Source: a virus
Lineage: Duplodnaviria > Caudoviricetes
Reading direction: 5' to 3' (one strand)
Virus record (IMG/VR): IMGVR_UViG_3300023181_000031
Coordinates: 1 to 62,097 of that record
DNA length: 62,097 nucleotides
The stretch's first letter is position 1. Every line of letters begins with the position of its first letter. The notes beneath the pieces were generated by a model. That model was not told where the DNA came from, ran no database searches, and saw only the letters and a list, made by a program, of their open reading frames with translations. Both the position numbers and the translations under genes were made by a program. Below, one piece after another: positions 1 through 62,097 of the stretch.

Positions 1-145
1 AAATTATCTTGATGATAATTAAAAGCTTGACCATCAATATTTACAATCGCAAAATTATGAAAAACATCACTTTCAAATCTTGATATAATTCCTACTTGAT
101 TATATTCTGGACAACCTTTATTACTAACCCTAACTTTATCGCCTA
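1..145. repeat. Terminal direct repeat, left copy (circular assembly overlap)
   Basis: Identical to 61954-62097 except for one extra A (TTACTAACCC vs TTACTACCC); an ORF reads through the join. Confidence 0.95.
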
Positions 146-1103
146 CTTTAAGCTTATCATCAGCTTTTTTAAACTCTGTTTTTTGATCTTGATTCTCTAC
201 AAAATCAATACTTGCTTGACTTGCTCCAAATAAATTTTTATCGTTAATTTCTATATCTTTTATAGGTATTAAAACTGGTTCTGATTCAGACGGCAACTGA
301 ATATAAATATTATTATGTGAGCTACCATCTCTTAAACCATTATCTATTAAAACTATACCAGTCATATTATGATATTTAGATTCAGGATTATTTATTTTAA
401 CTAAATCATTAGGTTTATAAACATACATAAGTGTTTGTTTTTCTTCTTTAATTAATTCTAAATGATATTTATGAAATGAAGTCTCGTTAAAATCATCAAA
501 ACTAACAATAAAATTTTTGTCTGTTGTTCCAATTCCCTTAATAATACCTATTTTATTAACATCAGTTAAATATAAGGTTTTTACTCTAACTTTATCACCT
601 ATTTTAAATTCTTGATTAGTATTTTTTTTAGACTCTTGTTTAACTTTTTCTTTAACTAACTCTAATTGATTTAGATTTAGTTCATCAGTACCAACATTAA
701 AGCTAACACGTGCACAAAATTGCTCTTCTTTAGTCCAACTACTTGTAAAAGTAAAAAATTCTTTAATAATTCCAACCTGATTATATCTATTTAAATAATC
801 TTTGGTTACTCTTACTTTATCGCCTATTTTAAAACCATCAAAATTGATATCTAGTTTAGGTAATTCAGAATCTTGCTTAACTTCTTCTTTATCCTTACTA
901 ACTCTTGTTAAAGTTCTTACGCCATTAGCTAACAAAATAGTACTTATATCTCTAGCTTTAAACTCTTTACCGTTATGCCTTTTAAAACCTCTAACATTTA
1001 AAGAATCAGCCGTATTACATTGATTAAATCCAGCTTCTTTATACTCTAAAACTAAATCAATAATCTCTTGCGGTTCTTTACACTCTTTTATTTTAGCTTC
1101 CAT
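1..1103 (-). CDS. N-terminal part of a junction-spanning 766-aa protein (recombinase-type HTH + tandem KOW/SH3 modules + Rha); continues at 61953-60756
   Basis: ATG at 1103 after GGAGAAG, open to base 1 and in frame with the 60756..61799 ORF. MEAKIKECKEPQEII...ADSLNVRGFKRHNGKEF...FKIGDKVRV...FKIGDKVRV...YKPNDLVKI...LKVGDKVRV. Confidence 0.88.
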   Translation of the reverse strand, partial: MEAKIKECKEPQEIIDLVLEYKEAGFNQCNTADSLNVRGFKRHNGKEFKARDISTILLANGVRTLTRVSKDKEEVKQDSELPKLDINFDGFKIGDKVRVTKDYLNRYNQVGIIKEFFTFTSSWTKEEQFCARVSFNVGTDELNLNQLELVKEKVKQESKKNTNQEFKIGDKVRVKTLYLTDVNKIGIIKGIGTTDKNFIVSFDDFNETSFHKYHLELIKEEKQTLMYVYKPNDLVKINNPESKYHNMTGIVLIDNGLRDGSSHNNIYIQLPSESEPVLIPIKDIEINDKNLFGASQASIDFVENQDQKTEFKKADDKLKVGDKVRVSNKGCPEYNQVGIISRFESDVFHNFAIVNIDGQAFNYHQDN

Positions 1104-1317
1104 AATCTTCTCCAATATATAAAAATTGTCCTACTTCTATTTTAAAAAACTCACATATTTTTAATAAAGTATCGTAGTGAATACCTTTTAATTTATTTGC
1201 TTTTATACCTGATAAAGTTCTGTTATCTATAGCAATTACTTTGCTTAAAGTTTTACTATTATATCTTTCCTTTTTCATTAACTCAGCAAGCTTGTTTTTT
1301 ATTATTCTGTCTGTCAT
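1093..1317 (-). CDS. XRE/Cro-C1 helix-turn-helix regulator
   Basis: 74 aa; KLAELMKKE..SKTLSKVIAIDNRTLSGIKANK..IHYDTLLKICEFFKIEVGQFL. Confidence 0.85.
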   Translation of the reverse strand: MTDRIIKNKLAELMKKERYNSKTLSKVIAIDNRTLSGIKANKLKGIHYDTLLKICEFFKIEVGQFLYIGEDYGS

Positions 1318-1341
1318 ATTCTCCTAGACTCCAATAATTTA

Positions 1342-1381
1342 ACAGTAATTACATTATATAGTAAATTTTAATTACTGTCTA
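1342..1381 (-). promoter_or_regulatory. sigma70-type promoter with overlapping inverted operator
   Basis: TAGACA-17 nt-TATAAT on the minus strand; ACAGTAATT...AATTACTGT inverted repeat overlaps it. Confidence 0.7.
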
Positions 1382-1401
1382 TAGTAATTTAAGATAATAA
1401 A

Positions 1402-1433
1402 TTAGACGAGTTTAGACGGTTAAACTCGTCTAA
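1402..1433 (-). terminator. 13-bp perfect hairpin at the end of the methylase gene
   Basis: TTAGACGAGTTTA-gacggt-TAAACTCGTCTAA, followed by a T-rich run on the minus strand. Confidence 0.6.
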
Positions 1434-2077
1434 AAATAATAGTTAATTTCTGGTTGTTCTTGAAATAAATTTAACTGTGAAACAAACTTATCTATCCTGT
1501 TTTTACCTTCTAAAAAATAATGTTGATCTAATTCGCAGCCTGTTAAATCAAAACCTAATTCTATACAGGCTTGTACAATAGACATTGAACCTAAATGAGT
1601 ATCAAGAATTTTATCACCTTGTTTAGCATACTTTTCTAATAACCAACGATACAGGGCAGTTGGTTTTTGTGTGGGGTGTATTCTATATTTATCTTGTGGA
1701 GCATATTCAAATAATTTTGATATAGTAGATAATTCATTATTAATCCAAGCATATTCACACATAGACATTGTAAATGTATCAGAAATAGTTTTTTTCTTAT
1801 AAATTACAAATCCACAATTATTAGGTAATAAATCATTAAAATTATTAGCACCCCAAATAATCTGATTTTTACTTACTCTAAATAATTCTTCAAAATAACT
1901 TTTATTAGGTTTATTTCCAAAATCTTTCATACTCCCATTATTTCGCATATCTTTTGTTGGTTGGTTATCTTTTAAATCTCGATAAGGCGGATCAACTATC
2001 GCTAAATCAAAATATTTATCAGGGTAATCTTTCATCAATAACATATTATCTTTGTTATATAAATCTATCTTAGTCAT
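1430..2077 (-). CDS. DNA amino-methyltransferase (N6-A/N4-C, beta-class), orphan
   Basis: DLAIVDPPY, HPTQKP and ILDTHLGS..GCELD motifs. Confidence 0.92.
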   Translation of the reverse strand: MTKIDLYNKDNMLLMKDYPDKYFDLAIVDPPYRDLKDNQPTKDMRNNGSMKDFGNKPNKSYFEELFRVSKNQIIWGANNFNDLLPNNCGFVIYKKKTISDTFTMSMCEYAWINNELSTISKLFEYAPQDKYRIHPTQKPTALYRWLLEKYAKQGDKILDTHLGSMSIVQACIELGFDLTGCELDQHYFLEGKNRIDKFVSQLNLFQEQPEINYYF

Positions 2078-2448
2078 TTTTTACCTTTATTTTTATCTAA
2101 TAAAATTTGATTGTTTTTAATATTAATAAAATCCTGAATATCAATATCGTTATCACTTAATACTCTTATTCTAGGCTCTATTAAATAATCAGGAGTATTA
2201 TTATTTACGCTTAAAATATCACTTATAACCTGATTGCAACTATCTTGATTAGTAAGAAGCTCATTAAAAATATACTCTAATCTTTCTAATGCTTCAGGGT
2301 CATTTTTACACTTTTCAATTTTATTAGAATATTTCTCTATTAAACCTATATCAACAAATCTTTTCTCACTAGCTAATTTTCTAAGCAAAGTATCTATATC
2401 ATCTTCAAAATATTCGTTATACATATTAATATTTCTCCAAGCTTGCAA
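2074..2448 (-). CDS. Hypothetical protein (probable start MYNEY at 2424)
   Basis: ORF coupled to dnaB and the methylase. Confidence 0.6.
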   Translation of the reverse strand: MQAWRNINMYNEYFEDDIDTLLRKLASEKRFVDIGLIEKYSNKIEKCKNDPEALERLEYIFNELLTNQDSCNQVISDILSVNNNTPDYLIEPRIRVLSDNDIDIQDFINIKNNQILLDKNKGKK

Positions 2449-3757
2449 ATTTTGTTAACGAACCATCAAAGAATAATTCTATTTCTCCCGTTGAGCCTTC
2501 ACGATTTTTTACTATTATAACGTCCGCTGTTTTTGTTCGAGTTCCTGGGTTGTAATACTCCTCTCTATAAAGCATTATTATGGCATCGGCAGCGGCTTCA
2601 ATTTCTGATGAATGTATTAAATCACTCATAATAGGTTTTTTACTTTGTCTTTGCTCAACTGCTCTACTTAATTGACTTAATGCTATTATTGGCACTTCTA
2701 ACTCTAAAGCAATATTTTTTAATTCTCTAGCAATTTGTGATACTTCATTTTCACGGTTAAAACCTTTACCTTTTAAAAGTTGTAAATAATCAACAACAAC
2801 AACACCTATTTTTTGCCCTTTAGTTTTTAATTTACGTAACTTATTTTTAATATCCTGCGGACTAACAGCACCTTTATCATCAATAAAAATAGGAGCTTTT
2901 TTGAGTTTAATAAATATTTCTTTTAGTTTATCTTTTTCTGTTGAGCTTACATTCCCATATTTAAAATCATTATAACTTTTACCAAACTCAGACGTGATAA
3001 TTCTATCGGCTATTTTACCTTTTAACATTTCTAAACTAAATATTGGAGTAGCTAAATTTTGATTTAATGCAATATATGTTGCTAAATTTACAGCGTAACT
3101 ACTTTTCCCGATTGCAGGTCTAGCCGCTAGTATATATAAACCTCCTGGCTGTATTTCTAATAAAGTATCTACATGCTCAAAGCCTGTATTTATTTTCTTA
3201 GATTTTTGCTCTTCGGTAATACCTCTATTATCTATATATCCCATATATTCAAGTTCTTTTTCTTCAAAAGTTTGTTTCATATGTTCTAAGTCATTAGTAT
3301 ATTTATCTTGAGATATTGCATATAATCCGCTTTCAGCTACTTCTAATAAATCATCTGTTTTTGTTGTTGGATCAAAAGCCATTTCTATAAGTTCATAAGA
3401 AAATGTTATTAAATCTCTTTTAACTTCTAAGTTCTTAAGTATCTCTAAATGTTTGGTAAACATACCGTGAACAATACTTTCAGTTGCGGTTAATACATAA
3501 CTGTAACCGCCTACATCTTCTAAATCATTATTTTCTTTTAACTTTTCGCATAAAGTTATAATATCAATTTGTACATTCTCAGAATTAAGATTGCTTAAGG
3601 CTTTAAAAATTTTAGCGTGATGAGTAATATAAAAACTTTTCTCATTTAATTTACTCAACATTTCATCTAAACAATTTTTACTTGTAAAACCTGCACTTAA
3701 AACAGACGTTTCCGCTTGTATATTATGCGGTGGTATAGAATCTAGTATCTTACTCAT
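2426..3757 (-). CDS. dnaB: Replicative DNA helicase DnaB
   Basis: PPHNIQAE N-terminus, Walker A ARPAIGKS, FSLEM, VVVDYLQL, SQLSRAVEQR, KNREG. Confidence 0.95.
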   Translation of the reverse strand: MSKILDSIPPHNIQAETSVLSAGFTSKNCLDEMLSKLNEKSFYITHHAKIFKALSNLNSENVQIDIITLCEKLKENNDLEDVGGYSYVLTATESIVHGMFTKHLEILKNLEVKRDLITFSYELIEMAFDPTTKTDDLLEVAESGLYAISQDKYTNDLEHMKQTFEEKELEYMGYIDNRGITEEQKSKKINTGFEHVDTLLEIQPGGLYILAARPAIGKSSYAVNLATYIALNQNLATPIFSLEMLKGKIADRIITSEFGKSYNDFKYGNVSSTEKDKLKEIFIKLKKAPIFIDDKGAVSPQDIKNKLRKLKTKGQKIGVVVVDYLQLLKGKGFNRENEVSQIARELKNIALELEVPIIALSQLSRAVEQRQSKKPIMSDLIHSSEIEAAADAIIMLYREEYYNPGTRTKTADVIIVKNREGSTGEIELFFDGSLTKFASLEKY

Positions 3758-4858
3758 TTAAACACCCTTATTGATTATTTTTGATATGGTTTTGCTTATA
3801 GAATTAATGTTTATATCTTTGTTATTTGCTTTAACTTCTAAGATCATATCTATTAATTCTTTAAAAGAAATAATTTCAAATGTTTTTAAGAACTTTGTTT
3901 GTATTTCATCAAAAAAACTACTATATGTTTCATCAAGTTCGGGCCTAGTTTCTTTTGAAATTGATCTGTAATAATCTAAATTACTTAGTTGAACTAATAC
4001 AGGATTAACTATATTCTCTTTAAGTTGTTCTAGGTTACTACCCATTGAACAACGCCAAATACTCATAACAGGTCTGTGTTTATTTAAAAATTCTTTCATA
4101 GACAAAGAAAATAAATGTTTTTTGTATTCGTCAGGCATATCCTGATTATTTTTTATAGCATTAACTAAATAACCTGCGTTGCGTTCACTAGTTTCTCTAT
4201 ATGGGTAATAAATTAATTGTTTAGAAATAATGTCACTAGAGTAATTAAAAACTAAATCTTTAGCAACACTTTCAAATATCTTTAATTCTGTAAGTTGTTT
4301 AATTAAGCTTGTTTTTTCTTCAGATAGAAAATTAACTATTTTTTCTTTAGGTGATTCAAAATTTTCTTTTATATTATCTTTATTATTATTTGTTTTATTT
4401 AAATTAGTTTTATTTATTTCTTTATATTTATATCGGTCTGATTCAACAGGGTTGCTTTCAATACTATTGCTTTCAATACCCTTGCTTGCAATACCCTTGC
4501 TTGCAATGGGGTTGCTTTCAATACCATTGAAAAGGGGGGATTGATCATCAAAAGGATAAGTAGTATAAGTCCATAAATACTTACCATCTACGCTTATTCT
4601 CTCACGTGATAACAACTTTAAGTTTTCAAGTTCTTTTACTCCCTTACTAACTGCTTTTTCTGTCAGGTTACATTTAAGCATTAAACTTTTAATATTCTCG
4701 TTATATTTAACATCGTTTGTTTTGATATTTAAGTATATTAATTTTGCGTTAGCTGTTATTTTAGGGTATCTGATAAATTTTAGATACCAAGTTTGATCCT
4801 CACTTTTATGATTAGTCACGTTTCCTCTATAATTGTTTTGTTTTTGAATTGCCGACAT
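3758..4858 (-). CDS. Replication initiator (N-terminal wHTH, internal iterons)
   Basis: ITANAKLIYL..SEKAVSKGVKELENLKLL-type wHTH, 5-aa repeats, C-terminal AGYLVNAIK; directly upstream of dnaB. Confidence 0.8.
   Translation of the reverse strand: MSAIQKQNNYRGNVTNHKSEDQTWYLKFIRYPKITANAKLIYLNIKTNDVKYNENIKSLMLKCNLTEKAVSKGVKELENLKLLSRERISVDGKYLWTYTTYPFDDQSPLFNGIESNPIASKGIASKGIESNSIESNPVESDRYKYKEINKTNLNKTNNNKDNIKENFESPKEKIVNFLSEEKTSLIKQLTELKIFESVAKDLVFNYSSDIISKQLIYYPYRETSERNAGYLVNAIKNNQDMPDEYKKHLFSLSMKEFLNKHRPVMSIWRCSMGSNLEQLKENIVNPVLVQLSNLDYYRSISKETRPELDETYSSFFDEIQTKFLKTFEIISFKELIDMILEVKANNKDININSISKTISKIINKGV
4452..4526. repeat. Five tandem 15-bp iteron-like repeats, probable replication origin
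   Basis: TTGCTT(T/G)CAAT-N4 units at 4452, 4467, 4482, 4497 and 4512, inside the initiator gene. Confidence 0.8.
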
Positions 4859-4867
4859 TAAAAAATA

Positions 4868-4957
4868 TCTCCTTTAATATTGTTTTTTAGGAGAATTTAA
4901 GCTAAACTAAGAATGTTACATAAATATATTTGGTCTTAGCGTTTGTTTAAATTCTCC
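4868..4957 (-). promoter_or_regulatory. Structured leader of the initiator gene with alternative RBS-sequestering pairing
   Basis: GGAGAATTTAA (4890-4900) and TTAAATTCTCC (4947-4957) inverted repeat; UCUCCU can alternatively pair with the AGGAGA RBS at 4868-4873. Confidence 0.55.
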
Positions 4958-4982
4958 AATAGTTTAGATAGGCTCTAAGGCT

Positions 4983-5135
4983 CTATCTTTTATCAAAATA
5001 ATCATTCACTATATCTCTAAGTATTTCAGAAATATGAACACCTAGCCTTGTAGCTTCATTTGTTAAATCTTTTATATTCTTTTCTGAATATGTATAAGTT
5101 TTTTTTACCTTTTTATTAGTTTCTACTCTTATCAT
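4983..5135 (-). CDS. CopG-like ribbon-helix-helix protein (50 aa, not in ORF track)
   Basis: MIRVETNKKVKKTYTYSEKNIKDLTNEATRLGVHISEILRDIVNDYFDKR; RBS AGGAG. Confidence 0.75.
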   Translation of the reverse strand: MIRVETNKKVKKTYTYSEKNIKDLTNEATRLGVHISEILRDIVNDYFDKR

Positions 5136-5542
5136 TTTTTTTATACTCCTGTATTGCTATTATACCACCTTAAATATTATATGTAAATTATTTAAGTTTT
5201 TTCAAATTTATCCCTTTATTAAAATTAAATCATCGGTTGAGCATTTAATATGCTGAGTGCTAAACGGGTAATTAGCTATTAAACATTGGTTATTGGCTTT
5301 CTTTTTAAGTCTTATATAGAATTTACCTTTTAAAGTTTTATGCTTTACTAAATCGCTTATATTCATTATTCTTCAGCTCCTAACTCTTCTAATAATTCGT
5401 TTATAAGTTTGTTTTCATAATAACCTTTTTCATCATAAGAATTATATGTTTTAAAGCTAGAATCTAAAAGAATGTTTTTTAGTGCTTGAATGTCTGATCC
5501 TGTTAGTTCAAGTTTTAAACTGTAATTTATTTCCATTATTTT

Positions 5543-5839
5543 TTACTCCTCAAAGCCTGAAAATTGATTGAATAAATTTAAACAATCCGAGCATGTTATA
5601 TCTTTTTTGGTATAGTTACTTTTTACATCTATTAAATCAAGCCATGTTAAGGTTTCATCTTCTATTGCCAAAGCTCTTACCTCACCACATAATGAAATAT
5701 TCCCTATTGAGTTTATATCGTCATTATCTTCTAAAGGCTCATCAGGAATAAAGACATGTATATCTGTTACACCATAAATCTCATTGTTATTTTCATCTAT
5801 TTCACAGGTATCTAACTCTGTAATATAAAAATCTTGCAT
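5543..5839 (-). CDS. Acidic putative zinc-binding protein; paralog of 57939..58187
   Basis: IHV..SLCG..DETL..ITCxxC pattern shared by both. Confidence 0.6.
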   Translation of the reverse strand: MQDFYITELDTCEIDENNNEIYGVTDIHVFIPDEPLEDNDDINSIGNISLCGEVRALAIEDETLTWLDLIDVKSNYTKKDITCSDCLNLFNQFSGFEE

Positions 5840-6011
5840 TTATTTTTTATCCTCTATTTCATATAATATTTTATCCATTAGGTCACGCTCAGGCTCATCG
5901 CCAAAATGTACAGCTACTTTATTAAATATGTTGATTAAAAGTTTTTGATCTCTTGAGGATAAAACAAGCATTATAGGTTGAAAAGTTTGTTTAGTTTCCA
6001 TTTATTACTCC

Positions 6012-6134
6012 TTAAAGTTGATTAGTTAAAATAGGTGTTTCACTTGGTGAAGGTAAAGGGAACGGTTTGTTATCCTGACACGGGTTAAACTGTGATAGTA
6101 AGATTATTAAACCGATTGTTAGTATTGTTTTCAT
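6012..6134 (-). CDS. 40-aa peptide with signal-like N-terminus (not in ORF track)
   Basis: MKTILTIGLIILLSQFNPCQDNKPFPLPSPSETPILTNQL; RBS AGGAG. Confidence 0.55.
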   Translation of the reverse strand: MKTILTIGLIILLSQFNPCQDNKPFPLPSPSETPILTNQL

Positions 6135-6518
6135 TTAATTAACTCCTGATAATAATTTGTTGTATTTAGGTTTCACTTTTTCAAAAGAGTCTTTTAATTC
6201 TTGAAGTTTGAATAAATTATTTTTTAAGTGATGTTTATTATTTTGTAATAAATTTCTAAAATTGATTCTATCATCAAGTGAATTACTTTCTTTAATTAAT
6301 TTAGTAAGTTTATTTACTTCATTTTGATAGAAATTAACTAAGTTAGTTAAATAATCGGTTTGTTGATCCCACCAGATTAAAGAATTTTCAGCGTAAAGTT
6401 TTTTAATTAAGTTTAAGTCTTTATCAGATAAGCTTTCAAATTTGATTGAGATAAACTCTAATAATATTTTAGCTGTGATAACTAAATCTAATTCTTTTAG
6501 TTGTTCTTTGGTTTTCAT
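6135..6518 (-). CDS. Hypothetical helical protein
   Basis: ORF in a tightly packed leftward operon. Confidence 0.65.
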   Translation of the reverse strand: MKTKEQLKELDLVITAKILLEFISIKFESLSDKDLNLIKKLYAENSLIWWDQQTDYLTNLVNFYQNEVNKLTKLIKESNSLDDRINFRNLLQNNKHHLKNNLFKLQELKDSFEKVKPKYNKLLSGVN

Positions 6519-6519
6519 T

Positions 6520-6813
6520 TTATTTCCTTTTAACTCCTATTGCTTTGTCACTTTCTTCAATTTGTTTATTTATACTTAGTTTTTCTAAATAATGATTTAA
6601 TTTATCGTTTGGAAATTCCGCTATATAAATTAAAAGTGTTTTCTTTTTACCTACAGATAAATTTACTAAGTCTTTATTATTGTTTAAGTCTTCTACATCT
6701 TCATAGTCTAAAATTATTTTATGTTCTTTGCCTTCAACGCCTTCAATATTTTTGATTATTTCCATTCTATTTTTTACTCCAAACGTCACATACACGACTT
6801 TGTGACACTTCAA
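6520..6813 (-). CDS. Hypothetical protein (probable start MEIIK)
   Basis: ORF in the same operon. Confidence 0.55.
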   Translation of the reverse strand: MKCHKVVYVTFGVKNRMEIIKNIEGVEGKEHKIILDYEDVEDLNNNKDLVNLSVGKKKTLLIYIAEFPNDKLNHYLEKLSINKQIEESDKAIGVKRK

Positions 6814-7021
6814 ATTTTAATTTATAATGTTGAGTGCAAAGATAGATTTTATTATTGTATTTATCTTTGTCAGATTGCACTGATTTACATGTTAAACAAT
6901 GTTTGTTTTGTTCTGTACTAGGTTTATACTCATAATGAGATTTAAAAGCGTTTACAGTGCAATTTAAACTTAACGGCTTTTTGTTAGTTGGTATATCTCC
7001 AAAAATATTTATTTGACACAT
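6767..7021 (-). CDS. Cys-rich hypothetical protein
   Basis: CxxC...C...VCDVW. Confidence 0.6.
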   Translation of the reverse strand: MCQINIFGDIPTNKKPLSLNCTVNAFKSHYEYKPSTEQNKHCLTCKSVQSDKDKYNNKIYLCTQHYKLKFEVSQSRVCDVWSKK

Positions 7022-7177
7022 ATTTTTAGCTCATCAGTATTAAAATATCTAAGTACTTGTTTTTTATCTAATAAAACCCTTATTTTTGGTTCTCCGTCTG
7101 TATAAACTTCTTTTATAATACCTGTAGAGTTAAAATGTATACACTCAGGATTAATAATTTTAACCTTTTTGTTTAGT

Positions 7178-7390
7178 TTAAATTCCATCTTTTTCTCCTT
7201 TATATTTTAATAAATCTCCTGGTTGACACTTAAGAGCCTTGCATAATTTGTTAAGAGTTGGTAGTGTGACGCCTTTCACGTTTCTTGATACATCAGATAA
7301 AAAGTTAGCTGATAGTTTTGTTTCTAGTGCTAAATCACTAAGTCTCATTTTTCTTTTTTGCAATACTTTAAGTAAAGTTATTTCGATCAA
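7178..7390 (-). CDS. XRE/Cro-like HTH regulator at the divergent switch
   Basis: KRKMRLSDLALETKLSANFLSDVSRN..TLPTLNKLCKALKCQPGDLL; TTG start after GAGGT. Confidence 0.9.
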   Translation of the reverse strand: MIEITLLKVLQKRKMRLSDLALETKLSANFLSDVSRNVKGVTLPTLNKLCKALKCQPGDLLKYKGEKDGI

Positions 7391-7420
7391 TTTTTAAACC
7401 TCTAAAAATATAATAATATT

Positions 7421-7512
7421 AGTGTAACACTATAAGAGATAAAATACAACTCATAGAGATTGTAAAAATATCTCTTGAAGTAGTTGACTTTTAAATGTGA
7501 TTAATATATACT
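7421..7512. promoter_or_regulatory. Back-to-back sigma70 promoters
   Basis: Plus: TTGACT-17-TATACT (7484-7512). Minus: TTGTAT-17-TACACT (7449-7421). AGAGAT/ATCTCT repeats lie between. Confidence 0.75.
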
Positions 7513-7547
7513 TGGTTTTAACGATTGAAATTAAAGGTAAAAACAAA

Positions 7548-7781
7548 ATGACAAAATTTGCTGATGAAAAAGTTTTAAAACAAGAATTAAAAACACAACT
7601 TCCTAAATTAACTATAAAGGTTACTAGAAATAAAGAAGCGGTAATAGGAATAAAAACCGAAGGTATAGGAGCAGGTAAGTTATTAACAAAGTATGTTTGT
7701 AAGAAATTAGGTTATGAGATTGTTAAACCTGAATATTTAACAGATAAACAAAAACAAAATTATGATTGTTTTATATTTTAA
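7548..7781 (+). CDS. Hypothetical early protein (start corrected to MTKFAD)
   Basis: AAAGGTAAAAACAAA before ATG 7548; the upstream track start lies within the promoter. Confidence 0.7.
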   Translation: MTKFADEKVLKQELKTQLPKLTIKVTRNKEAVIGIKTEGIGAGKLLTKYVCKKLGYEIVKPEYLTDKQKQNYDCFIF

Positions 7782-7794
7782 GAGGTAAAAACAA

Positions 7795-8412
7795 ATGACA
7801 TTTAGAAGCGTAACAAGTGATTTAGAAAAGACTTATCAAGAAAAGTTTAAAGGTTTAGATAATAAAGGTTTAGTAGCTGATTTTAGAGCTGAGAAAAAGA
7901 AAAAAAATGAATTTAAAACACTTGCAGAGTTTAAAGCTGAAAGTTTAGTTCCTTTTCATATCTATAGAAAAGAATTTAATAGAAGAGGGATAGATTACTT
8001 AGAAGTGTTGCATAATCCTGAGTTTGTGCCTGCTGATAGTGTTACAGAAATTACTTACGCTGAGTATGCAAAACAGTTTTTAAATATAACTATAACAGAA
8101 GATCAAGCCATGTTTTTATGGAGTTTAGCCACTGATGACTTAGATATAGTTTATCAAGGTTGTAAGACTGGTACTAGATCAGTTTATATAGTTAATTACA
8201 TAGAAAGTTTATGTGATGATAAAGGTATAGAGTTTCCAGAAAAAAGACATTTTAATAACAGTGAATATAACAGGTTTTTTGATAATATTCTTGATCCTGA
8301 AAGTAATATTTATAATGCTTCTGTTCATATGGAAGTGTTAAATAAAATAGTTACTAAGTGTTTTGATAAGTTCGTAGAATTTTATGATGAAAATAGAAAT
8401 GGAGATATTTAA
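7795..8412 (+). CDS. Hypothetical acidic early protein
   Basis: 205-aa ORF with RBS GAGGTAAAA. Confidence 0.75.
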   Translation: MTFRSVTSDLEKTYQEKFKGLDNKGLVADFRAEKKKKNEFKTLAEFKAESLVPFHIYRKEFNRRGIDYLEVLHNPEFVPADSVTEITYAEYAKQFLNITITEDQAMFLWSLATDDLDIVYQGCKTGTRSVYIVNYIESLCDDKGIEFPEKRHFNNSEYNRFFDNILDPESNIYNASVHMEVLNKIVTKCFDKFVEFYDENRNGDI

Positions 8413-14247: not shown

Positions 14248-14250
14248 TTT

Positions 14251-14323
14251 GCCCTTTTAACTCAGTGAATAGAGTACCTGGCTACGAACTAGGGAGTCGT
14301 AAGTTTGATTCTTACAAAGGGTA
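14251..14323 (+). tRNA. tRNA-Arg(ACG), no encoded CCA
   Basis: GCCCTTT/AAAGGGT, ACTC/GAGT, CCTGG-CTACGAA-CTAGG, GTAAG-TTTGATT-CTTAC. Confidence 0.9.
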
Positions 14324-14348
14324 TTTATATATTTTAAGAGGTATAAAA

Positions 14349-23458: not shown

Positions 23459-23638
23459 TCAGTCATTTTTTACCTCTAATTCATCAGGAAAAAACCATTT
23501 TGTTTCTTTACCAATAATAGCTAAAATATAATCATCACTAATGTGAGTAATAGTTCCTGTTAACCCTAAATAAACATTTATATAACCTTTTCTTGTATTA
23601 ACTATTTTAACTGTATCATTTACTTTAAATTCATACAT
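23459..23638 (-). CDS. 59-aa stand-alone KOW/SH3-like protein (not in ORF track)
   Basis: MYEFKVNDTVKIVNTRKGYINVYLGLTGTITHI..KWFFPDELE. Confidence 0.75.
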   Translation of the reverse strand: MYEFKVNDTVKIVNTRKGYINVYLGLTGTITHISDDYILAIIGKETKWFFPDELEVKND

Positions 23639-23783
23639 TAGTTTTGTTCTCCTCTAAAGAATCTCTCATAGTTTCAAGTATCTGAGCTGTTACCGTTCGA
23701 CTTTCTATATCTGCTTTATCTTTAATCTTTTGATATAGCTCTATAGGAATTTTTAAAAGAATTGCGTATTTATCTTTACTCAT
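23631..23783 (-). CDS. Arc-like ribbon-helix-helix repressor (50 aa, not in ORF track)
   Basis: AILLKIPIELYQKIKDKADIESRTVTAQILETMRDSL. Confidence 0.8.
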   Translation of the reverse strand: MSKDKYAILLKIPIELYQKIKDKADIESRTVTAQILETMRDSLEENKTNV

Positions 23784-23955
23784 TGATTAACTCCAATTCA
23801 TTAGGTAAAAACCATTTTTCATCATTTCTAAAACTTAGTAAAATACTACTATCATTCATTTCTATAATTTCACCTGTTAAACCTAAATAAGAATTTATAT
23901 AGCCAGGTTCTGTATAAACAACTTTAACAGTATCGCCTATTTTAAATTTATCCAT
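23776..23955 (-). CDS. 59-aa stand-alone KOW/SH3-like protein, paralog of 23459..23638
   Basis: MDKFKIGDTVKVVYTEPGYINSYLGLTGEIIEM..KWFLPNELE. Confidence 0.75.
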   Translation of the reverse strand: MDKFKIGDTVKVVYTEPGYINSYLGLTGEIIEMNDSSILLSFRNDEKWFLPNELELINE

Positions 23956-23981
23956 TGATTACCTCTTAATAGAATATATAC

Positions 23982-40812: not shown

Positions 40813-43800
40813 ATGGCTTTAAATGATATTCTATTAAAAATACTACTCGATAACGCAGACGCTTTAAAAAAGATTAAGCAAACTATTACAAGTTTTGATG
40901 ATCTAGCAAAGTCTATAAATGGTTTTAATGCTACTACTAAGTCAATGACTAAAGACATGGACGCTTTAGGCGTTAGTATTGGTAAGATTGAAAACAATAA
41001 TAAAAATCTAAGTAAAACTTTTAACGATAATGCTACTAATATAGAGAAACAAGATAATAGCACTAAAACATATCAAAAAACTATTACAAATACTACAGAA
41101 GCTATTCACACCTTAGAAACTAATATAAAAGGTCAGATAGCTAGTATTAACAGTAATACAACAGCTATTAAGGGTAATATACAAGCTTTACAAACTGAAA
41201 ACTCTTTTATCAATAGTAATAACACAGCTATCAAAGGAAATATAGCCGCTTATAACTCACAAACAACCGCTATAAATGGTGATATAAAAGCACTTCATAC
41301 TTTAGATACTTCTATACAAGGTAATATTAGTAATTTAAATTCTAATAAAACCGCTATACAGGGTAACATCGGAGCATTACACACGCTCGAAACAGCTATC
41401 AAAACTGAAAAAGTAGTAATAGAGGGAGCTGTACAAGCTTTAAACGCTGAAAATGTTGTTATTAATAACGTAACAAATAATATTATACGTAACTCAACCG
41501 TTGTAAGAGAACAAACAAACGTTTATCAAGGTTTTCAGAATGTTATATGGGAAGTTCAAACAGCTTTTAACGCTTTAGGTAAAGTAATTAATCAACTTAT
41601 TGATTCACCATTTATCGAGTGGGGGCGTCAGGTTGAGGTTAATTTTAGAAACATGAATAGTATTGGCTTAGAAACTGAGGAACAATTTAAACAAACTAAG
41701 CAAGCAGTATATGACCTGGCAAATAAAGAAGGATTAGCAAATCTAAACGATTTATCCGATGGTTTACGTGAGATATATTCAAGTGGCTATGAAGGAAAGC
41801 AAGCACTAGAATTACTAGAAGCCGCTAATCAAGGTGCAGGGGCAGGTTTAGCACAAACAGCCGAGCAATTACATGCTACAATTAGTATTCTCCATTCTTA
41901 CGGATTGGCGACGTCTGAGGCGGCACGAGTTAACAATATTCTCGTTAAAACTGTACAAGACGGTGTCGTTACATTACCTGAGTTATCAAGATATATAGGT
42001 CAAGCTGTGACCTTAGCACCTGCATTTAAAAAAGCAAATGGGGAAACAGCGGTATCACTTGATCAGGTTGCGGCTGCAATAGTTGGAATAACTAGACAAG
42101 GTTTGAACATATCAGAGACCACAGTAGCAATAAATCAATTATTTAAAACATTCTTAGACCCTGCTAAAGAAGCTAAAGAGTTAGCCGATAGTTTAAATAT
42201 TGATCTATCAAGTAAGGCTTTTAGTGAGCGTAATTTTGCGGAAGTAATACAAGATGTATTAGCAAAAACTAATGGGCCAGATCAAGACGACCTTTTAGGT
42301 AAATTGTTCGGAAATATTAGAGCATTAAAGGGTTTATTTAAATTAGCTCGTGATGACGCACAATTTTTTAAACAAGAAATCGACGTAATAATGTCAGATT
42401 ATGACAAGCAAAATAACGCTCAAAAAGGTGCTTTAGCTGAACAAAGAAAAACATACGATCAACATTTAAAAGCTTTAACTTTACGTTGGGAAGTTGCAGC
42501 ACAAAATTTATTTGATATAGCGAAATTTCTTGCCGCTCCATTTATTGCTATAGTAGATACTTTAATACAAACTTTTAATTTACTTCCTGGATGGTTTAAA
42601 ACTCTTGTAGCGGGTTTTGTTGTAATAACTTTTAATGCGGGTGTTTTAGCCGCTGCATTTGTAACACTTAAATTATCTGCTATGGCGGCTATGAAAGCTT
42701 TACTAATTGTAGGTGTAGAAGCGGAAATATTAGCAAAAGGGTTATATCTACTTAGAACGGCTGCTATAGCCGCTTGGAGTTATTTAGTAATTCCCGCTGC
42801 TGTTTTTGTAGGATTAAATTTATTTAATGAATGGTTAAAAAGTGTAGATACACCATTATCAAGAGCTATATCAAAAGTTATGGATTATGTAGACGCAATA
42901 AATTTACTTAAACAAGCTGCTGAAAGTTTATCTACTGAAAGTGCTGTAATTGAAAACTCTAAAAATTATAATAAATCTATTGACGAAGCAAATAAAAAAG
43001 TAGCGGAATTACTTAAATTAGAAGAAGAAAGATTTGCAGTAGGAAAAAGGTTAACCTCTTTAGAAAAATATGAACTTGCTAGAGCTTCACTTGTTCTTGA
43101 TCCTGTAGGAAATAAAAACTTTGCTCAGGAATATGCTAAAGATTATTTAGCAGAAATTAAAGCCGCTAAAGATAAAGAAAAAGCTATAAAAGAAGTAACT
43201 ATCAGAGGTATAAATGAACGTAAACAATTATCTGAAGACGCATCAAAAACTATAGGACAATTAGAAGATAAATATTTCAAAAGAACATTAGATAAACACG
43301 ACTATAATATTAATAAAGCAAAAGTAGATAGAGACGCTGAATTAAAACAAATACAAAATGCTTACGATCAACAAATTGACTTAGTAGATAAAAATGGTAA
43401 TAAGTATAAACTTACTGAAGAAAAATACAGAGATATAATCTCACGTATTAATGCCTCTTATGATGAAAAAGACAAAACATTACTTAAAGCAAAAAATGAT
43501 TATATTACCGCTGAAAATGAAAAGGCTTTAAGAAAACAAGAAGCAGCTAGAAAGAAATATATTGATAATGTAAATATTAAATTTGATCCTAATGTTTTAC
43601 AAGCTAAAACTAATATAAATGAAATAGAATCAGATACACAACATTCAGATCAAGAAAAACAAAAATCATTAATAGCTCAATATAAATATTTACAGGATTT
43701 ATACAACCTCAAAAAAACATTCTTTACTAAAGATGGTGAAGAGTATAAAAAAGCTCAATTACAAGCTAGTGAATATACTGAAAAAATAGCTAAAGTACAA

Positions 43801-46800
43801 TATCAAGCAACCGTACAAGGTTATCAAGATAGATTAGAAAAAGCTAAGGAATTTACTCAGGATCAAACCGAGTTAGAAAATATTTCTATTGAAGACAAAG
43901 CAAAGAAAATAAAGTTAGCTCTTAACTCTGAAAAGATTATTTATACTCAAATGTCTAAAGATTTAAAACTATCTTTTAATGAAAGACAAGCCGCTAATAA
44001 AAATATTCTTGCTATAGATAAGCAATTAAATAAAAATAAAATAGATTTACAAAAACAATCATTAGATGAACAAATCAACGAAGAAAAAAGAGCTAATAGT
44101 GCATTAGAAACAGAAACTAACAACCGCATTAAAAATGATGAGATAAGAGAAAAAGAAGCCAATGATTTAAGAATTAATGTAGCTAATTTACATCTTAAAG
44201 AATTAAATGCACTCTTAAGAAAAGCTGAAAAAGAAAATAACATTAGTGTTATAAAATCATTAAAAGATGAAATTACAACTACTAAAAATGCTAAGAGTGA
44301 ATTAATAACAAACTATAAACAAATAGCTGAAGAAAGACGTAAAATCGAAGTAGAACAAAGCCAACAGTCTATACAACAACTTATAGCTAATGATGATAAA
44401 TTGTATCAACGTAAATTACAATTTATACAAGATAATGTACAACAAAACGAAATAGCTTACCAACAACAATTAACAACCGATTCAGATTACTATAATAAAC
44501 AACTAGCTTTTATTGATGCCGAAATCGAAGCTGAAAAACAAAAACAATCTTTAATTTATTTTGATAAAGATTATTTTGATAATTTAGAAGCTAGTAGAAG
44601 ACGTATTGCTTTATTAAATGAAGCTAGAATTAATAAAGAATTTGAAGCTGAAAAGAAACTATATCAAAATAAATTAGATTTTATTAACGGTATAGGTCAA
44701 GCATTACAACAATCTAATAATGCAACTGTACAAAGTTTCGGAAATTTAGCTAATAGTGTGGGTAATGCTTTTAGTAGTGTACCTGGAATATTAACAGATA
44801 TCACAAAGGCTATGAGTGGCGATTTTTCAGGCGTAATAGTTAGAGTATTAAATGAAACTGTAAGAATAACAAATAGTTTAGGTAGTGCATGGGATAACTT
44901 TAATAAAGGTGCTGCTAAAGGTAAAGAAGGTATGCAAGATATCTTAAAAGCTTCTAATGATCTATTAAGAGCTGTGCCTTTTGTGGGTGATATGCTAGCT
45001 GATTTTTTCAAAACGGCAACAAATATATTAGGATTAACAAAATCAGATAAAGAAATAGAAGATAATAATAAACTTATTAATTCTACTTATGAACTAGCAA
45101 AGGTTAAATTACAAACCGCTGATAAAACATCTAAAGGAGAGATAGAGCTTGAAAATTTAGCTTATGATAACGCTATACATAATCTTAACCAAGAAAAATT
45201 AAACGCTCAGGATTACGCTAATAAAAAAGAAATTATAGAGATACAACATCAAGAAAAACTAAGCGAAATAAGACAAAAAGCAAGTGAGAAAGATCTCGAA
45301 ATAACACAAGCACTTATGACTAGTCAATTAAAATTAAATGATAGTTATAGAAATAAATTATTAAATAATACTTTAAGCGGAATAACTAAACTTATAAACC
45401 TTACTAATCAATTAGCTAGAGGAGAAATTACACAAGATCAATTTAATAAATTAGCACAAACTAATCAAAACGAAGTTAACTCAAATGATGATAGTATACG
45501 TTTAAGCGAAGTTGCAAAACAAATATCATTAGACGCTAAAGTAGCTAAATCATATATAGAAACACGTGAAGACTCTGAACAAAAAAGTATAGATCTAGCT
45601 AATAATGCTTTTAATGAGCGTAAAGCTATTTTAGATGCTGAGTTAAAATATGGAAAAATTCAACAGGCTGAATATGATAGAGAATTAATAATAGCTCAAA
45701 ATAATCGTTTAGTTGCTATGAAATCTAACGCAAAAACTGCTAATAAAGATATTGTAGAAGCTAACGAAAAAAATTATAAATCTGAGTTATCTATTATTGA
45801 TAAATTTTACGGTGAAAAAAGACGTAAACTTGAACAAGACGTACAAAAAGAAATAGATATAATTCAAGATAAAAACAATAAACTTAGACAATTAGACGAA
45901 GATAGACAAACAACATTAGAACAAAAACAAACTAGATTAACCGCTTTTAATAATGCTTTAGCTGATCCAAATAATCAACGTACAGCAGATTTTTATAGAG
46001 CTAATCCCGAGGATTTTGAGAATGGCTTTAATGGAAATACAGCAGCTAGACAAAACCTAGAAGCTGGATTTAATGCGGGTACTGTAGATTTTGATTCGTA
46101 TATGCGTCAACGTGCCTCACTTGGTTTAAAACAATATCAATATTATACAGAACAAGCTAAAAAAATACTTGATCCTAAAGAACGTCAAGAAGCTTTAAAC
46201 AAGGCTATCGCAGGTCAAGAAGAATTTTACAATTTTGTATTTGATAAAGATAAAGAAAAAATAGAACTAGAAGCCCGTCAAGCTGAAAAACGTAAGCAAG
46301 AAAAGCAAAAAGAATTAGACGCTATATTAATTCTTGAGAAGCAGGCTATATCTAAGTTAGACGCCGCTTATAAAAATTCTGCGGGCTTGTATAAGGACGT
46401 TTTTGTGCAAGCTACTCAATCTTGGGTGGATTTTGCTCAGGCTGCAATTAATGATATTGATTTATCTAACTTGATTAAAAAAGCTACGAATGATATAGCA
46501 CAAACTACACAAGGTGTTACAGGTAGTAATAATATTAGTAATCCTCAACCACAAGCGGGATATAACAGCGGTACAGGTACGGTAAATATTCCGATACCAC
46601 TTCCAGGCGGTGGATTTGTAAATATTCCAATACCTGTACACGCTCCAACTAATCAAAATATAGGCTCTACAACTGCTAACAGTACTAATAACTTAGGCTC
46701 TAATTCTAATTTATCTATAGATGAACAAATCAGACGTTTAACTATTGATGACGCAAATATAGAACGTGCTAAGCGTGGTATGCCTTTATTAAAATATCAT

Positions 46801-47097
46801 GGTGGTGGTGATACCCCTACAAGTGGCGGTGAGTTTTTTGCATTAATGAAACCAAAAGAAACAGTATTTAATGAAACTCAACGAAATGAAGTACACAGTG
46901 GAATATTAAACCTAGTTAGAGAAGCAAACGCAAGACCTTCTAATAATTACAATAATAGCTCTAAAAATATAACTGTTGTTTTTAATCCTGTATTACATAA
47001 TGTTGATCTCGCTAATAGTCCAATGCTTCAAGCTACTATGAAAAATGAATTTAATGTGTTTAAAAATGATTTACAAAATACTATTTTAGGTAGGTAA
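40813..47097 (+). CDS. Tail tape measure protein (TP901-type core)
   Basis: 2094 aa; ILHSYGL..NNILVKTVQDGVVTLPELS; TM region; long coiled coil; KYHGGG near C-terminus. Confidence 0.92.
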   Translation: MALNDILLKILLDNADALKKIKQTITSFDDLAKSINGFNATTKSMTKDMDALGVSIGKIENNNKNLSKTFNDNATNIEKQDNSTKTYQKTITNTTEAIHTLETNIKGQIASINSNTTAIKGNIQALQTENSFINSNNTAIKGNIAAYNSQTTAINGDIKALHTLDTSIQGNISNLNSNKTAIQGNIGALHTLETAIKTEKVVIEGAVQALNAENVVINNVTNNIIRNSTVVREQTNVYQGFQNVIWEVQTAFNALGKVINQLIDSPFIEWGRQVEVNFRNMNSIGLETEEQFKQTKQAVYDLANKEGLANLNDLSDGLREIYSSGYEGKQALELLEAANQGAGAGLAQTAEQLHATISILHSYGLATSEAARVNNILVKTVQDGVVTLPELSRYIGQAVTLAPAFKKANGETAVSLDQVAAAIVGITRQGLNISETTVAINQLFKTFLDPAKEAKELADSLNIDLSSKAFSERNFAEVIQDVLAKTNGPDQDDLLGKLFGNIRALKGLFKLARDDAQFFKQEIDVIMSDYDKQNNAQKGALAEQRKTYDQHLKALTLRWEVAAQNLFDIAKFLAAPFIAIVDTLIQTFNLLPGWFKTLVAGFVVITFNAGVLAAAFVTLKLSAMAAMKALLIVGVEAEILAKGLYLLRTAAIAAWSYLVIPAAVFVGLNLFNEWLKSVDTPLSRAISKVMDYVDAINLLKQAAESLSTESAVIENSKNYNKSIDEANKKVAELLKLEEERFAVGKRLTSLEKYELARASLVLDPVGNKNFAQEYAKDYLAEIKAAKDKEKAIKEVTIRGINERKQLSEDASKTIGQLEDKYFKRTLDKHDYNINKAKVDRDAELKQIQNAYDQQIDLVDKNGNKYKLTEEKYRDIISRINASYDEKDKTLLKAKNDYITAENEKALRKQEAARKKYIDNVNIKFDPNVLQAKTNINEIESDTQHSDQEKQKSLIAQYKYLQDLYNLKKTFFTKDGEEYKKAQLQASEYTEKIAKVQYQATVQGYQDRLEKAKEFTQDQTELENISIEDKAKKIKLALNSEKIIYTQMSKDLKLSFNERQAANKNILAIDKQLNKNKIDLQKQSLDEQINEEKRANSALETETNNRIKNDEIREKEANDLRINVANLHLKELNALLRKAEKENNISVIKSLKDEITTTKNAKSELITNYKQIAEERRKIEVEQSQQSIQQLIANDDKLYQRKLQFIQDNVQQNEIAYQQQLTTDSDYYNKQLAFIDAEIEAEKQKQSLIYFDKDYFDNLEASRRRIALLNEARINKEFEAEKKLYQNKLDFINGIGQALQQSNNATVQSFGNLANSVGNAFSSVPGILTDITKAMSGDFSGVIVRVLNETVRITNSLGSAWDNFNKGAAKGKEGMQDILKASNDLLRAVPFVGDMLADFFKTATNILGLTKSDKEIEDNNKLINSTYELAKVKLQTADKTSKGEIELENLAYDNAIHNLNQEKLNAQDYANKKEIIEIQHQEKLSEIRQKASEKDLEITQALMTSQLKLNDSYRNKLLNNTLSGITKLINLTNQLARGEITQDQFNKLAQTNQNEVNSNDDSIRLSEVAKQISLDAKVAKSYIETREDSEQKSIDLANNAFNERKAILDAELKYGKIQQAEYDRELIIAQNNRLVAMKSNAKTANKDIVEANEKNYKSELSIIDKFYGEKRRKLEQDVQKEIDIIQDKNNKLRQLDEDRQTTLEQKQTRLTAFNNALADPNNQRTADFYRANPEDFENGFNGNTAARQNLEAGFNAGTVDFDSYMRQRASLGLKQYQYYTEQAKKILDPKERQEALNKAIAGQEEFYNFVFDKDKEKIELEARQAEKRKQEKQKELDAILILEKQAISKLDAAYKNSAGLYKDVFVQATQSWVDFAQAAINDIDLSNLIKKATNDIAQTTQGVTGSNNISNPQPQAGYNSGTGTVNIPIPLPGGGFVNIPIPVHAPTNQNIGSTTANSTNNLGSNSNLSIDEQIRRLTIDDANIERAKRGMPLLKYHGGGDTPTSGGEFFALMKPKETVFNETQRNEVHSGILNLVREANARPSNNYNNSSKNITVVFNPVLHNVDLANSPMLQATMKNEFNVFKNDLQNTILGR

Positions 47098-60755: not shown

Positions 60756-61953
60756 TTACACCTTAAAAATATCACTAACAATATCAAACACTTGATTTAA
60801 AATATCTAACTCGTGCATTATTTGCAATCTGCTTTTTTTAATACCCCTCATTTCATAATTACTTTTTCTAAGAGGAATATTAAAACCTAATCTATCGTAA
60901 ATCTCTTTATCTAATTTATACCAAGCTTCTTGATTTTCCTTATCTCCTGGATTATCAAACTTAGTAACAACATATTTACGAATAACAGCTAATATCTTTT
61001 TACTTAAAGGAGCTTCAATTGCTGTATTATTTGAGTACTCTACATCTTTTAAATTATCTAATAACTCTTTCTTTTCAACTTCCTGACGTTCTAAAGTATT
61101 TTCTACATTTTCTAATCTGCCATTAATTAAACTTAATTTAGCCTCTTGATCTTTTAAAGCTTGCAACTGACTAGTAAATAAATCAATCGCTGTTACTGGC
61201 TTAGTTTGTGCTAATTGCTCACTCATTTCTTCAAATTTATCAAGATATTTTTCTTTAAATTTAACAGCCTTTTCACCTGTAAAACTAAAAGCTAATAAAC
61301 TAAATCCTTTTTCTGTCATTTCAAACATACGGATTTGTTTATTTTGCTCACTGGTATAAAAGGACGGTGCAAAATTACGCTCTCTAAATTTTTCGGTACA
61401 TTCTAACAAATCTAAGGCACGTAATACAGATTTATGTTCCTTATTAAATACCATAGATACATAAAGAGTATTAGTAACTAACTTTCCATCTTTTTCATAA
61501 ACTATATTATTTTGATTAGGGGTAAATAAGTCTTGATCTACATTAACTAAACCGTTATCTATTTCTTTTAACTCATCTACTAATTCTAAATTACTAAGAT
61601 AAAACGTACCTACAGATTTACCATCATTAAAAATAACTTCTGTAATTTCTTTGTTTAAAAAATTAATTTTACCAATTTCATCAAAACAACTATTCTTTTT
61701 ATCAATTATTTTTACTTTACTTCCAATTTTAAACAACTCAGGATTATATTTTCTTAAACTTGTAAAAATAAACTCAGCAACAACATTAACATCTTTCATT
61801 TGAACAAAGTATCTACCATTAGATAAAACATCTTTAATAGTACCTACAGAGCCGTAAAAGTTTGTATATTCATTATCTATAACAACTAAATCACCAACTT
61901 TAAAACCTTTGTTTGTTTCAACTTCTTTAACGGGTTCTTGCTCTACTAACTCT
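60756..61953 (-). CDS. C-terminal part of the junction-spanning protein: KOW modules 5-6, Rha domain, coiled coil
   Basis: FKVGDLVVI, FKIGSKVKI; Rha motif VTNTLYVSMVFNKEHKSVLR..NFAPSFY..FEMTEKGFSLL..FTGEKAVKFKEKY..FEEM. Confidence 0.9.
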
Positions 61954-62097
61954 AAATTATCTTGATGATAATTAAAAGCTTGACCATCAATATTTACAAT
62001 CGCAAAATTATGAAAAACATCACTTTCAAATCTTGATATAATTCCTACTTGATTATATTCTGGACAACCTTTATTACTACCCTAACTTTATCGCCTA
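61954..62097. repeat. Terminal direct repeat, right copy
   Basis: Matches 1-145 with a 1-bp deletion. Confidence 0.95.

Follow-up and report, generated by a model that had tools for sequence, protein, structure and literature searches.

A phage genome linearised within a gene for a protein that joins six SH3-like modules to a Rha domain

Rha proteins are among the commonest phage 'regulatory' genes, although their mechanism is barely known, and Iyer et al. 2002 is reportedly the source for domain shuffling between the Rha and Bro families. The NusG and Spt5 proteins, which carry KOW domains, are defined by the NGN domain, the part that binds RNA polymerase. One study describes an N-terminal Rha domain followed by KilA-C/ANT at the C-terminus, as well as domain shuffling between Rha and Bro (PMC6145125). 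Here we describe a different arrangement in the window, i.e., the whole 62,097-bp stretch of the IMG/VR record IMGVR_UViG_3300023181_000031 (Duplodnaviria; Caudoviricetes), which carries across its two ends a minus-strand gene for a 766-aa protein. The gene is intact and encodes one protein with a ~90-aa N-terminal region, six tandem modules, a Rha domain and a ~150-aa C-terminal region; the combination of a module array with Rha is a new one in a well-known, shuffling-prone family of phage regulators.

When the record is closed into a circle of 61,953 bp using the left copy of its terminal overlap, a minus-strand frame is open over 775 codons; from the ATG at 1103, which has GGAG upstream at a spacing of 6 nt, to the stop codon (60756-60758) it spans 2301 nt (766 aa), as a preliminary description made from the sequence alone had proposed. 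The 766-codon frame is not a product of chance, because at 27% G+C (24-31% along the window) about 8.5% of random codons are stops, and by an arithmetic estimate a frame of this length would stay open with a probability of ~1e-30. Joining with the right copy splits the gene into frames of 441 and 345 codons. The junction also completes the fourth module of the array, the start of which is read at the left end only and the LELV end at the right end only, and the completed module scores an independent E-value (i-E) of 1.9e-11 against a model built from other proteins; in the right overlap copy, the frame is unbroken through the module's second half up to and including LELV. Of this contig, the protein database has only a 347-aa call (P0009), which starts at an internal Met and is the C-terminal fragment that the preliminary description had recognised as incomplete, and the 367-aa N-terminal piece is kept as a separate ESM Atlas entry.

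The record is classed as 'linear' in IMG/VR, with a CheckV completeness estimate of 47%. Bases 1-145 are identical to 61954-62097 except for a single A (145 vs 144 nt), which is missing behind 62078 in the right copy. Module paralogy is excluded as the origin of the 144-nt end identity, because the DNA identity between paralogous modules does not exceed 71% (over 78 nt); no further near-identical repeat was found in the DNA of the window. The Logan assembly of run X1, a leaf-litter metagenome and the only public run found with this DNA, contains a 1758-nt contig (depth 14.6) that spans 61266-62097, continues 925 nt past the window's last base and has the extra A behind 62078, which supports the in-frame left copy rather than the 1-bp-deleted version that had been seen as a threat to the gene. 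The phage genome is circular or circularly assembled, with a length of ~61,953 bp, and linearised within one gene. The record is probably a complete circular assembly in which a 1-bp error at the end masked the repeat, and both the 'linear' class and the estimate of 47% are probably consequences of the in-gene linearisation and this error. The case shows how a gene was hidden when a circular assembly was opened inside it and the end repeat carried a 1-bp error.

The six repeats begin at aa 91, 166, 229, 318, 385, and 442, exactly with the peptides that the preliminary description had quoted, and LELV or LELI closes four of them. A module profile was seeded with the six window modules and rebuilt twice from relatives alone (~410 modules, from 124 of 124 proteins); the module is ~55 aa long, with the consensus FKVGDKVKV...G.VG.I...Y.V.FDDG...LELV. 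The rebuilt profile matches the joined protein six times, with i-E values of 1e-11 to 1e-14 for five modules and a partial match to the third (3.9e-4). The Pfam matches of the window modules are all sub-threshold (NHase_beta_C, SH3_15, L19, NdhS, and S1), and the models for KOW (PF00467), DUF1918 (PF08940), and PsaE (PF02427) find nothing in the window at E <= 10, the KOW control being positive in 14 of 14 genomes. With the six-module profile, PsaE chains are matched at E 1e-3, and Spt5 KOW at E 0.3-1. When the N-terminal 367 aa were searched exhaustively with phmmer against 1.84 billion representatives, six proteins matched at E <= 0.001 (best E 3.7e-9, 34% identity), all of them arrays of the same module. 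Taken whole, these relatives pass the Pfam cut-offs for DUF1918, PsaE, NHase_beta_C, KOW4_SPT5 or KOW (e.g., DUF1918 at 59 bits vs a cut-off of 24 in P0003, and KOW at 37.5 bits vs 22.3 in P0005), and none has Rha. The link of the window modules to DUF1918 and PsaE is transitive only, via such relatives and, for PsaE, via the six-module profile.

The profile search yielded 319 matches among 8000 scored candidates, with PF09669 (Rha) in none of 120 among the matches listed. The number of modules in 124 relatives ranges from 2 to 9 (118 with two to five, six with six or more), and the 26 IMG/VR relatives of P0048, an array protein, each carry a single module or two, with Rha absent within 5 kb. 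The array of the 766-aa protein has a net charge of -6 (isoelectric point 5.7), and for the modules of relatives the median is -3. An NCBIfam match to the UpxY-antiterminator family is weak (E 0.0021, 18 bits vs 100). No relative of the N-terminal part was found by tblastn against 50,697 GenBank phage records, no longer relative by a word-index search, and no relatives by IMG/VR scans with P0001 and P0003; the ESM Atlas gave no usable match for the whole N-terminal part. The module also occurs in single copy in the window, in three minus-strand open reading frames (ORFs) of 60-65 aa (23779-23958, 23462-23653, and 7012-7206; i-E 1.5e-8 to 1.6e-6) that have no Pfam match. A 109-aa ORF three genes downstream of the 766-aa gene (59987-60316, minus strand) has a module-like N-terminal peptide with a weak module match (i-E 0.015) and a sub-threshold match to Phage_ProQ_C_like (21.5 bits vs 27). 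In one relative (P0100, 502 aa), a Tad2-like anti-defence domain lies between modules (PF11195, E 7.9e-12, 46 bits vs 25).

The single-sequence AlphaFold2 (AF2) model of the N-terminal part was uninformative (mean predicted local distance difference test score, pLDDT, of 33). The informative run used the N-terminal piece with a 110-sequence alignment of relatives (mean pLDDT 67), and in it modules 1 and 2 are modelled as five-stranded barrels (pLDDT 76-97); module 4, cut short in the modelled piece, has a pLDDT of 43-61. A Foldseek search of the PDB placed the Spt5 chains of Pol II-DSIF complexes at the top (E 6e-7), followed by HERC2, the SETDB1 triple Tudor domain, AGDP3, KOW6-7, KOW2-3, and KIN17. 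Multi-domain TM-scores are low (0.09-0.22 by target length, 0.11-0.15 by model) because the relative placement of the domains is not shared. In VIA-align searches of module 2 against 48,161 representative chains, in which differences of up to 1 Z unit count as ties and any model commonly attains a best Z of 7-8, the top match was the Hpy99I N-terminal domain (Z 9.2, root-mean-square deviation 1.3 over 53 residues), with NdhS (Z 9.1), Spt5 KOW6-7 (Z 9.1, root-mean-square deviation 1.6 over 55 residues), NusG KOW (Z 8.8), YorP (Z 8.3), Tudor domains (Z ~8), a complex of PWWP with single-stranded DNA (Z 8.0), and PsaE (Z 7.2-7.8) behind it; the KOW domains of NusG, RfaH, and Spt5 together cover Z 7.7-9.1. 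KOW is not singled out by the fold, because NdhS, PsaE, Tudor, and YorP are tied with it. Thus, the predicted fold of the module is an SH3-like barrel, for which KOW is one of several equal labels: the 'KOW/SH3' modules of the preliminary description stand at the level of fold, with Spt5 as the top Foldseek match, but other folds are tied with KOW and the KOW profile has no match in the window. Among viral models, 93 in BFVD match at E <= 0.001 (e.g., Gp579 of Bacillus phage G), and the named ones are nearly all 'uncharacterized', with a few fold-type labels (L21e, KOW, and Mind-bomb SH3). SH3-like arrays as such are common in phages and uncharacterised.

The Rha domain announced after the repeats is clear. 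It scores 83.8 bits against PF09669 (cut-off 29.9; 86.6 bits in a six-frame search) and 84.8 bits against TIGR02681 of NCBIfam (cut-off 45.95), and the PHROG matches are Rha-like regulator and anti-repressor families; having passed both curated cut-offs, it is a bona fide Rha domain at the level of sequence. The Rha region is 32% identical to P0011, a Rha-ORF6C relative, over 150 residues (E 8e-19), and the first ~30 residues after Rha align to the beginning of that protein's ORF6C domain; P0010, a Rha-ANT relative, has 50% identity over 23% of the query. ORF6C itself has no match in the window, and ANT is absent from the Pfam matches listed for the 766-aa protein. Searches of P0009 against PDB sequences with phmmer gave nothing meaningful.

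At the other end of the protein, aa 1-27 are modelled as two helices (pLDDT ~80), and aa 28-83 fall below a pLDDT of 50. The preliminary description had seen here a recombinase-type helix-turn-helix (HTH), and PF07508 (Recombinase) does match at aa 12-58 (930-1070; profile positions 4-50), with an E-value of 0.0064 for the window, in which it is the sole candidate; however, the score of 12.7 bits lies below the cut-off of 21.1, and hmmscan did not list the family at E <= 1. The ESM Atlas feature matches for aa 1-90 include two PF07508 clusters (0.85 and 0.83), scores under 0.9 counting as leads only. A phmmer search of aa 1-90 against PDB sequences gave nothing meaningful, and the Resolvase catalytic domain PF00239 has no match in the window at E <= 10. 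The likeness of this region to Recombinase is a weak but concordant signal, by which membership of the family is not established.

To place the architecture, the 80 IMG/VR loci closest in their Rha domain were compared, 69 of which have a closed 5' frame; in these 69 the median ORF is 252 aa long, with a median of 4 aa before Rha. The module profile matches none of the 80 (none at E below 0.7), and some PHROG Rha families have 60-160 aa ahead of the domain. The sole long Rha frame (L007, 589 aa) was rejected as a spurious open frame in G+C-rich DNA before an ordinary start. No second fusion of modules with Rha was found in the sampled relatives, which are samples and not a census, nor, judged by title and opening of the abstract, any description of the architecture among the papers listed in the literature search, supplementary files being outside the coverage; the papers found on DUF1918 do not deal with phages. 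The authors of the preliminary description had not recognised the arrangement and had considered that it might prove common among Rha proteins, or that the repeats might not model as barrels; the samples contained no further case, and modules 1 and 2 were modelled as barrels.

The best reading, to which we would give a probability of about 0.55, is that of an early-operon Rha-type regulator with a multivalent docking array. In the early programme, the C-terminal ~250 aa would act like ordinary Rha proteins of ~250 aa, either as a regulator that binds DNA or as a factor of the antirepressor type. The array of six modules would be an added platform for multivalent docking, for a protein partner more likely than for nucleic acid, by which the Rha unit would be tethered to, or concentrated on, a partner that is oligomeric or repeated. 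The whole protein may have arisen by fusion of a module array to a Rha regulator, because the nearest Rha proteins are short and without modules, and arrays occur without Rha. A protein partner is favoured by two weak arguments, namely that the array is slightly acidic (as are the relatives' modules, with their median charge of -3), and that the KOW6-7 pair of Spt5, a top match, is reported not to have bound nucleic acid (PMC6076269).

Several points weigh against this reading. Charge is a weak argument against nucleic-acid binding. The AF2 models cover the N-terminal piece, in which module 4 and the N-terminal region were modelled poorly. The biochemical role of Rha is poorly defined, and no solved Rha structure is detectable by sequence. 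The window has no match to the tyrosine integrase PF00589 or to Resolvase PF00239, so that the phage may not be temperate and the classic role of an antirepressor in prophage induction may not apply. Scans of GTDB genomes with the terminase and P0009 found no relative that would point to a host. Finally, X1 may be the source sample, in which case the Logan contig is a second assembly and not independent data.

Among the alternatives, it is unlikely that the array is a general phage carrier, decoy or sponge against host defence, with Rha as one payload among several. The arrays are widespread, unannotated and of variable module number, the Tad2-like domain of P0100 is flanked by modules, and the single-module ORFs, three in number, lie in early-looking regions of the same genome; against this, P0100 is the one such fusion among 14 array relatives run against Pfam, and a term search of a survey of polyvalent proteins (Iyer et al., 2017; PMC5512222) found no mention of Rha, SH3, KOW or Tudor. 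It is rather unlikely that the barrels contact DNA and, jointly with Rha and the HTH-like N-terminal piece, wrap or bridge repeated sites. Hpy99I N-domain, PWWP/Tudor, and Sso7d-like barrels do contact DNA. The top single-module match is the Hpy99I domain, the PWWP complex was also matched, and the protein has two other putative DNA-binding parts, but proteins that do not bind DNA reach tied Z-scores, the array is on the acidic side, if slightly, and no repeated DNA motif that would fit six modules was found in the window (the exact 10-mer at the promoter described below occurs only twice).

The preliminary description had favoured a multivalent regulator that binds nucleic acid or RNA polymerase, possibly an antiterminator or antirepressor. 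In the antiterminator form, a KOW-type array of the Spt5/NusG kind would bind RNA polymerase, S10 (NusE) or nascent RNA, and the protein would be a Rha-delivered antiterminator or elongation factor, which we consider quite unlikely, as nothing beyond the fold speaks for RNA-polymerase binding. Multi-KOW Spt5 chains are the best Foldseek matches, the KOW domains of NusG, RfaH, and Spt5 align well with module 2, the relative P0005 passes the Pfam cut-off for KOW, and there is the weak UpxY-antiterminator match. Set against these are the NGN domain PF02357, without a match in the window at E <= 10 (control positive in 11 of 14 genomes), the equally good matches of NdhS, PsaE, Tudor, YorP, and the Hpy99I N-domain, the low multi-domain TM-scores, the KOW profile without a window match, modules that are not basic, and the KOW6-7 pair noted above. 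A bolder version, a phage analogue of Spt5 without NGN in which Rha, perhaps with the Recombinase-like HTH, would anchor on phage DNA while the barrels engage the host transcription-translation machinery (RNA polymerase, NusE/S10 or ribosomes) and couple or reprogramme it on early transcripts of the phage, seems very doubtful; if true, the arrays in hundreds of phage proteins would be a general multivalent device for the capture of host machines. Least probable is that there is not one gene, either because the shorter right copy is true (a frameshifted pseudogene or two genes) or because the overlap is an artefact that joins halves from different molecules: the 'linear' class with its 47%, the one-base difference between the copies and the possible identity of X1 with the source sample are outweighed by the extra A and the continuation of the Logan contig, an indel only 19 nt from the record's end, two long open halves in 27% G+C DNA whose join restores a complete module, the lack of any other near-identical repeat in the window, and the presence there of a complete complement of genes for replication, packaging, head, and tail.

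The genomic setting of the proposed Rha-type regulator is summarised with the coordinates of the gene and its neighbours in Table 1. The minus-strand unit begins with a Cro/C1-type HTH gene, the 766-aa gene comes second, and small ORFs and a dCTP deaminase gene follow. A perfect 10-bp inverted repeat lies over the predicted promoter (arms 1342-1351 and 1369-1378), and exact copies of its 10-mer in the window are these two arms only; it is a candidate operator. A complex prediction of the 74-aa HTH protein with both halves of the 766-aa protein gave a score of 0.00 and, being without controls, speaks neither for nor against binding. Genes in the window include those for a replication initiator, DnaB, DNA methylase, Erf, ThyX, dCTP deaminase, PD-(D/E)XK nuclease, and GIY-YIG endonuclease, together with those for the large terminase, Mu-type portal, head protease, capsid, and tail fibre. 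The 2094-aa ORF at 40813-47097 (plus strand), flanked by the head genes and the tail-fibre gene, is a candidate for the tape measure, judged by its size and place; a homing-endonuclease-like gene with GIY-YIG and NUMOD3 (56529-57374, minus strand) is directly upstream of ThyX (55888-56532, minus strand), and there is one tRNA-Arg(ACG) at 14250-14324. A DNA search with positions 1-8000 matched in the methylase gene only, and no close relative was found among GenBank phages.

Table 1. Features of the 766-aa gene, its upstream region and the terminal overlap (positions in the window; aa numbering of the joined protein).
Feature	Position	Strand	Basis or remark
5' part of the gene, codons 1-367 + 2 nt	1..1103	-	ATG at 1103-1101
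3' part of the gene, from the last base of codon 368 through codon 766 to the stop	60756..61953	-	stop 60756-60758
N-terminal region, aa 1-90	834..1103	-	orphan; none of the 6 phmmer matches covers aa 1-65
Module 1, predicted SH3-like barrel, aa 91-150	654..833	-	module profile i-E 1.3e-12; pLDDT 93-97
Module 2, predicted SH3-like barrel, aa 166-218	450..608	-	module profile i-E 9.4e-14; pLDDT 76-95
Module 3, divergent with insertion, aa 229-290	234..419	-	partial match aa 233-254, i-E 3.9e-4; strands pLDDT 64-79
Module 4, aa 318-371	1..152 (first 50 residues) + LELV end at 61944-61953	-	i-E 1.9e-11, joined protein
Module 5, aa 385-437	61746..61904	-	i-E 2.4e-11, aligned over aa 385-423
Module 6, aa 442-493	61578..61733	-	i-E 9.4e-12
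Rha domain, aa 528-612	61221..61475	-	PF09669 E 1.3e-23
C-terminal ~150 aa after Rha	60759..61220	-	no domain match; BLASTP of P0009 vs P0011
Cro/C1-type HTH gene, 74 aa	1093..1317	-	PF13443 E 4.1e-10; 3' end overlaps start of the 766-aa gene by 11 nt
Predicted promoter TAGACA-17-TATAAT (1381-1353), 11/12	1342..1381	-	consensus match only; candidate operator overlaps
Terminator-like hairpin, 13 pairs + T run	1402..1433	-	at the end of the methylase unit upstream
Left copy of the terminal overlap	1..145	.	complete, in-frame version; same version in the Logan contig
Right copy of the terminal overlap	61954..62097	.	without one A behind 62078, 19 nt before the record's end

A natural six-fold docking array before Rha would provide a handle on what Rha units are brought to, and the protein draws attention to a large unnamed phage family of tandem SH3-like arrays. 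Its resemblance to described systems is partial in each case. A possible likeness to large serine recombinases and short viral 'recombinase family' proteins lies at aa 12-58, where PF07508 is sub-threshold; the large serine recombinases also have the Resolvase catalytic domain PF00239, which was not matched here. Polyvalent proteins of phages and conjugative elements combine many different anti-host enzymatic or binding domains in a single chain; here, one repeated kind of module was found together with Rha. The tandem Tudor, SH3-like, and Agenet readers (SETDB1, KIN17, HERC2, and AGDP3) match over several barrels (E 1e-5 to 5e-4); they are, however, eukaryotic chromatin or ubiquitin factors, with 11-21% sequence identity to the modules. 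With Spt5 and NusG (NGN and one to seven KOW domains), the protein shares beads-on-a-string barrels of KOW-like fold, although here there is neither NGN nor a KOW profile match and the partner domain is Rha instead.

Two further systems each account for one part of the protein. The phage SH3-like arrays (P0003-P0008 and P0015-P0132; Pfam DUF1918, PsaE, SH3_15, and NHase_beta_C) have the same module and similarly acidic linkers; they differ in that Rha is absent from the six relatives of the exhaustive search and from the 120 among the matches listed, and in that these relatives reach Pfam cut-offs, whereas the window modules reach none and the best identity of the N-terminal part is 34%. In the Rha family (e.g., gp103 of Bacillus phage Basilisk, with Rha-KilA-C/ANT, as well as P0010 and P0011), Rha is N-terminal in proteins of ~250 aa and is often followed by ANT/KilA-C or ORF6C; here, neither of these was matched, and Rha begins at aa 528, behind ~520 extra residues. 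Shared with that family are the same Rha domain, above its cut-offs, and the position of the gene among early and regulatory genes, beside an HTH gene.

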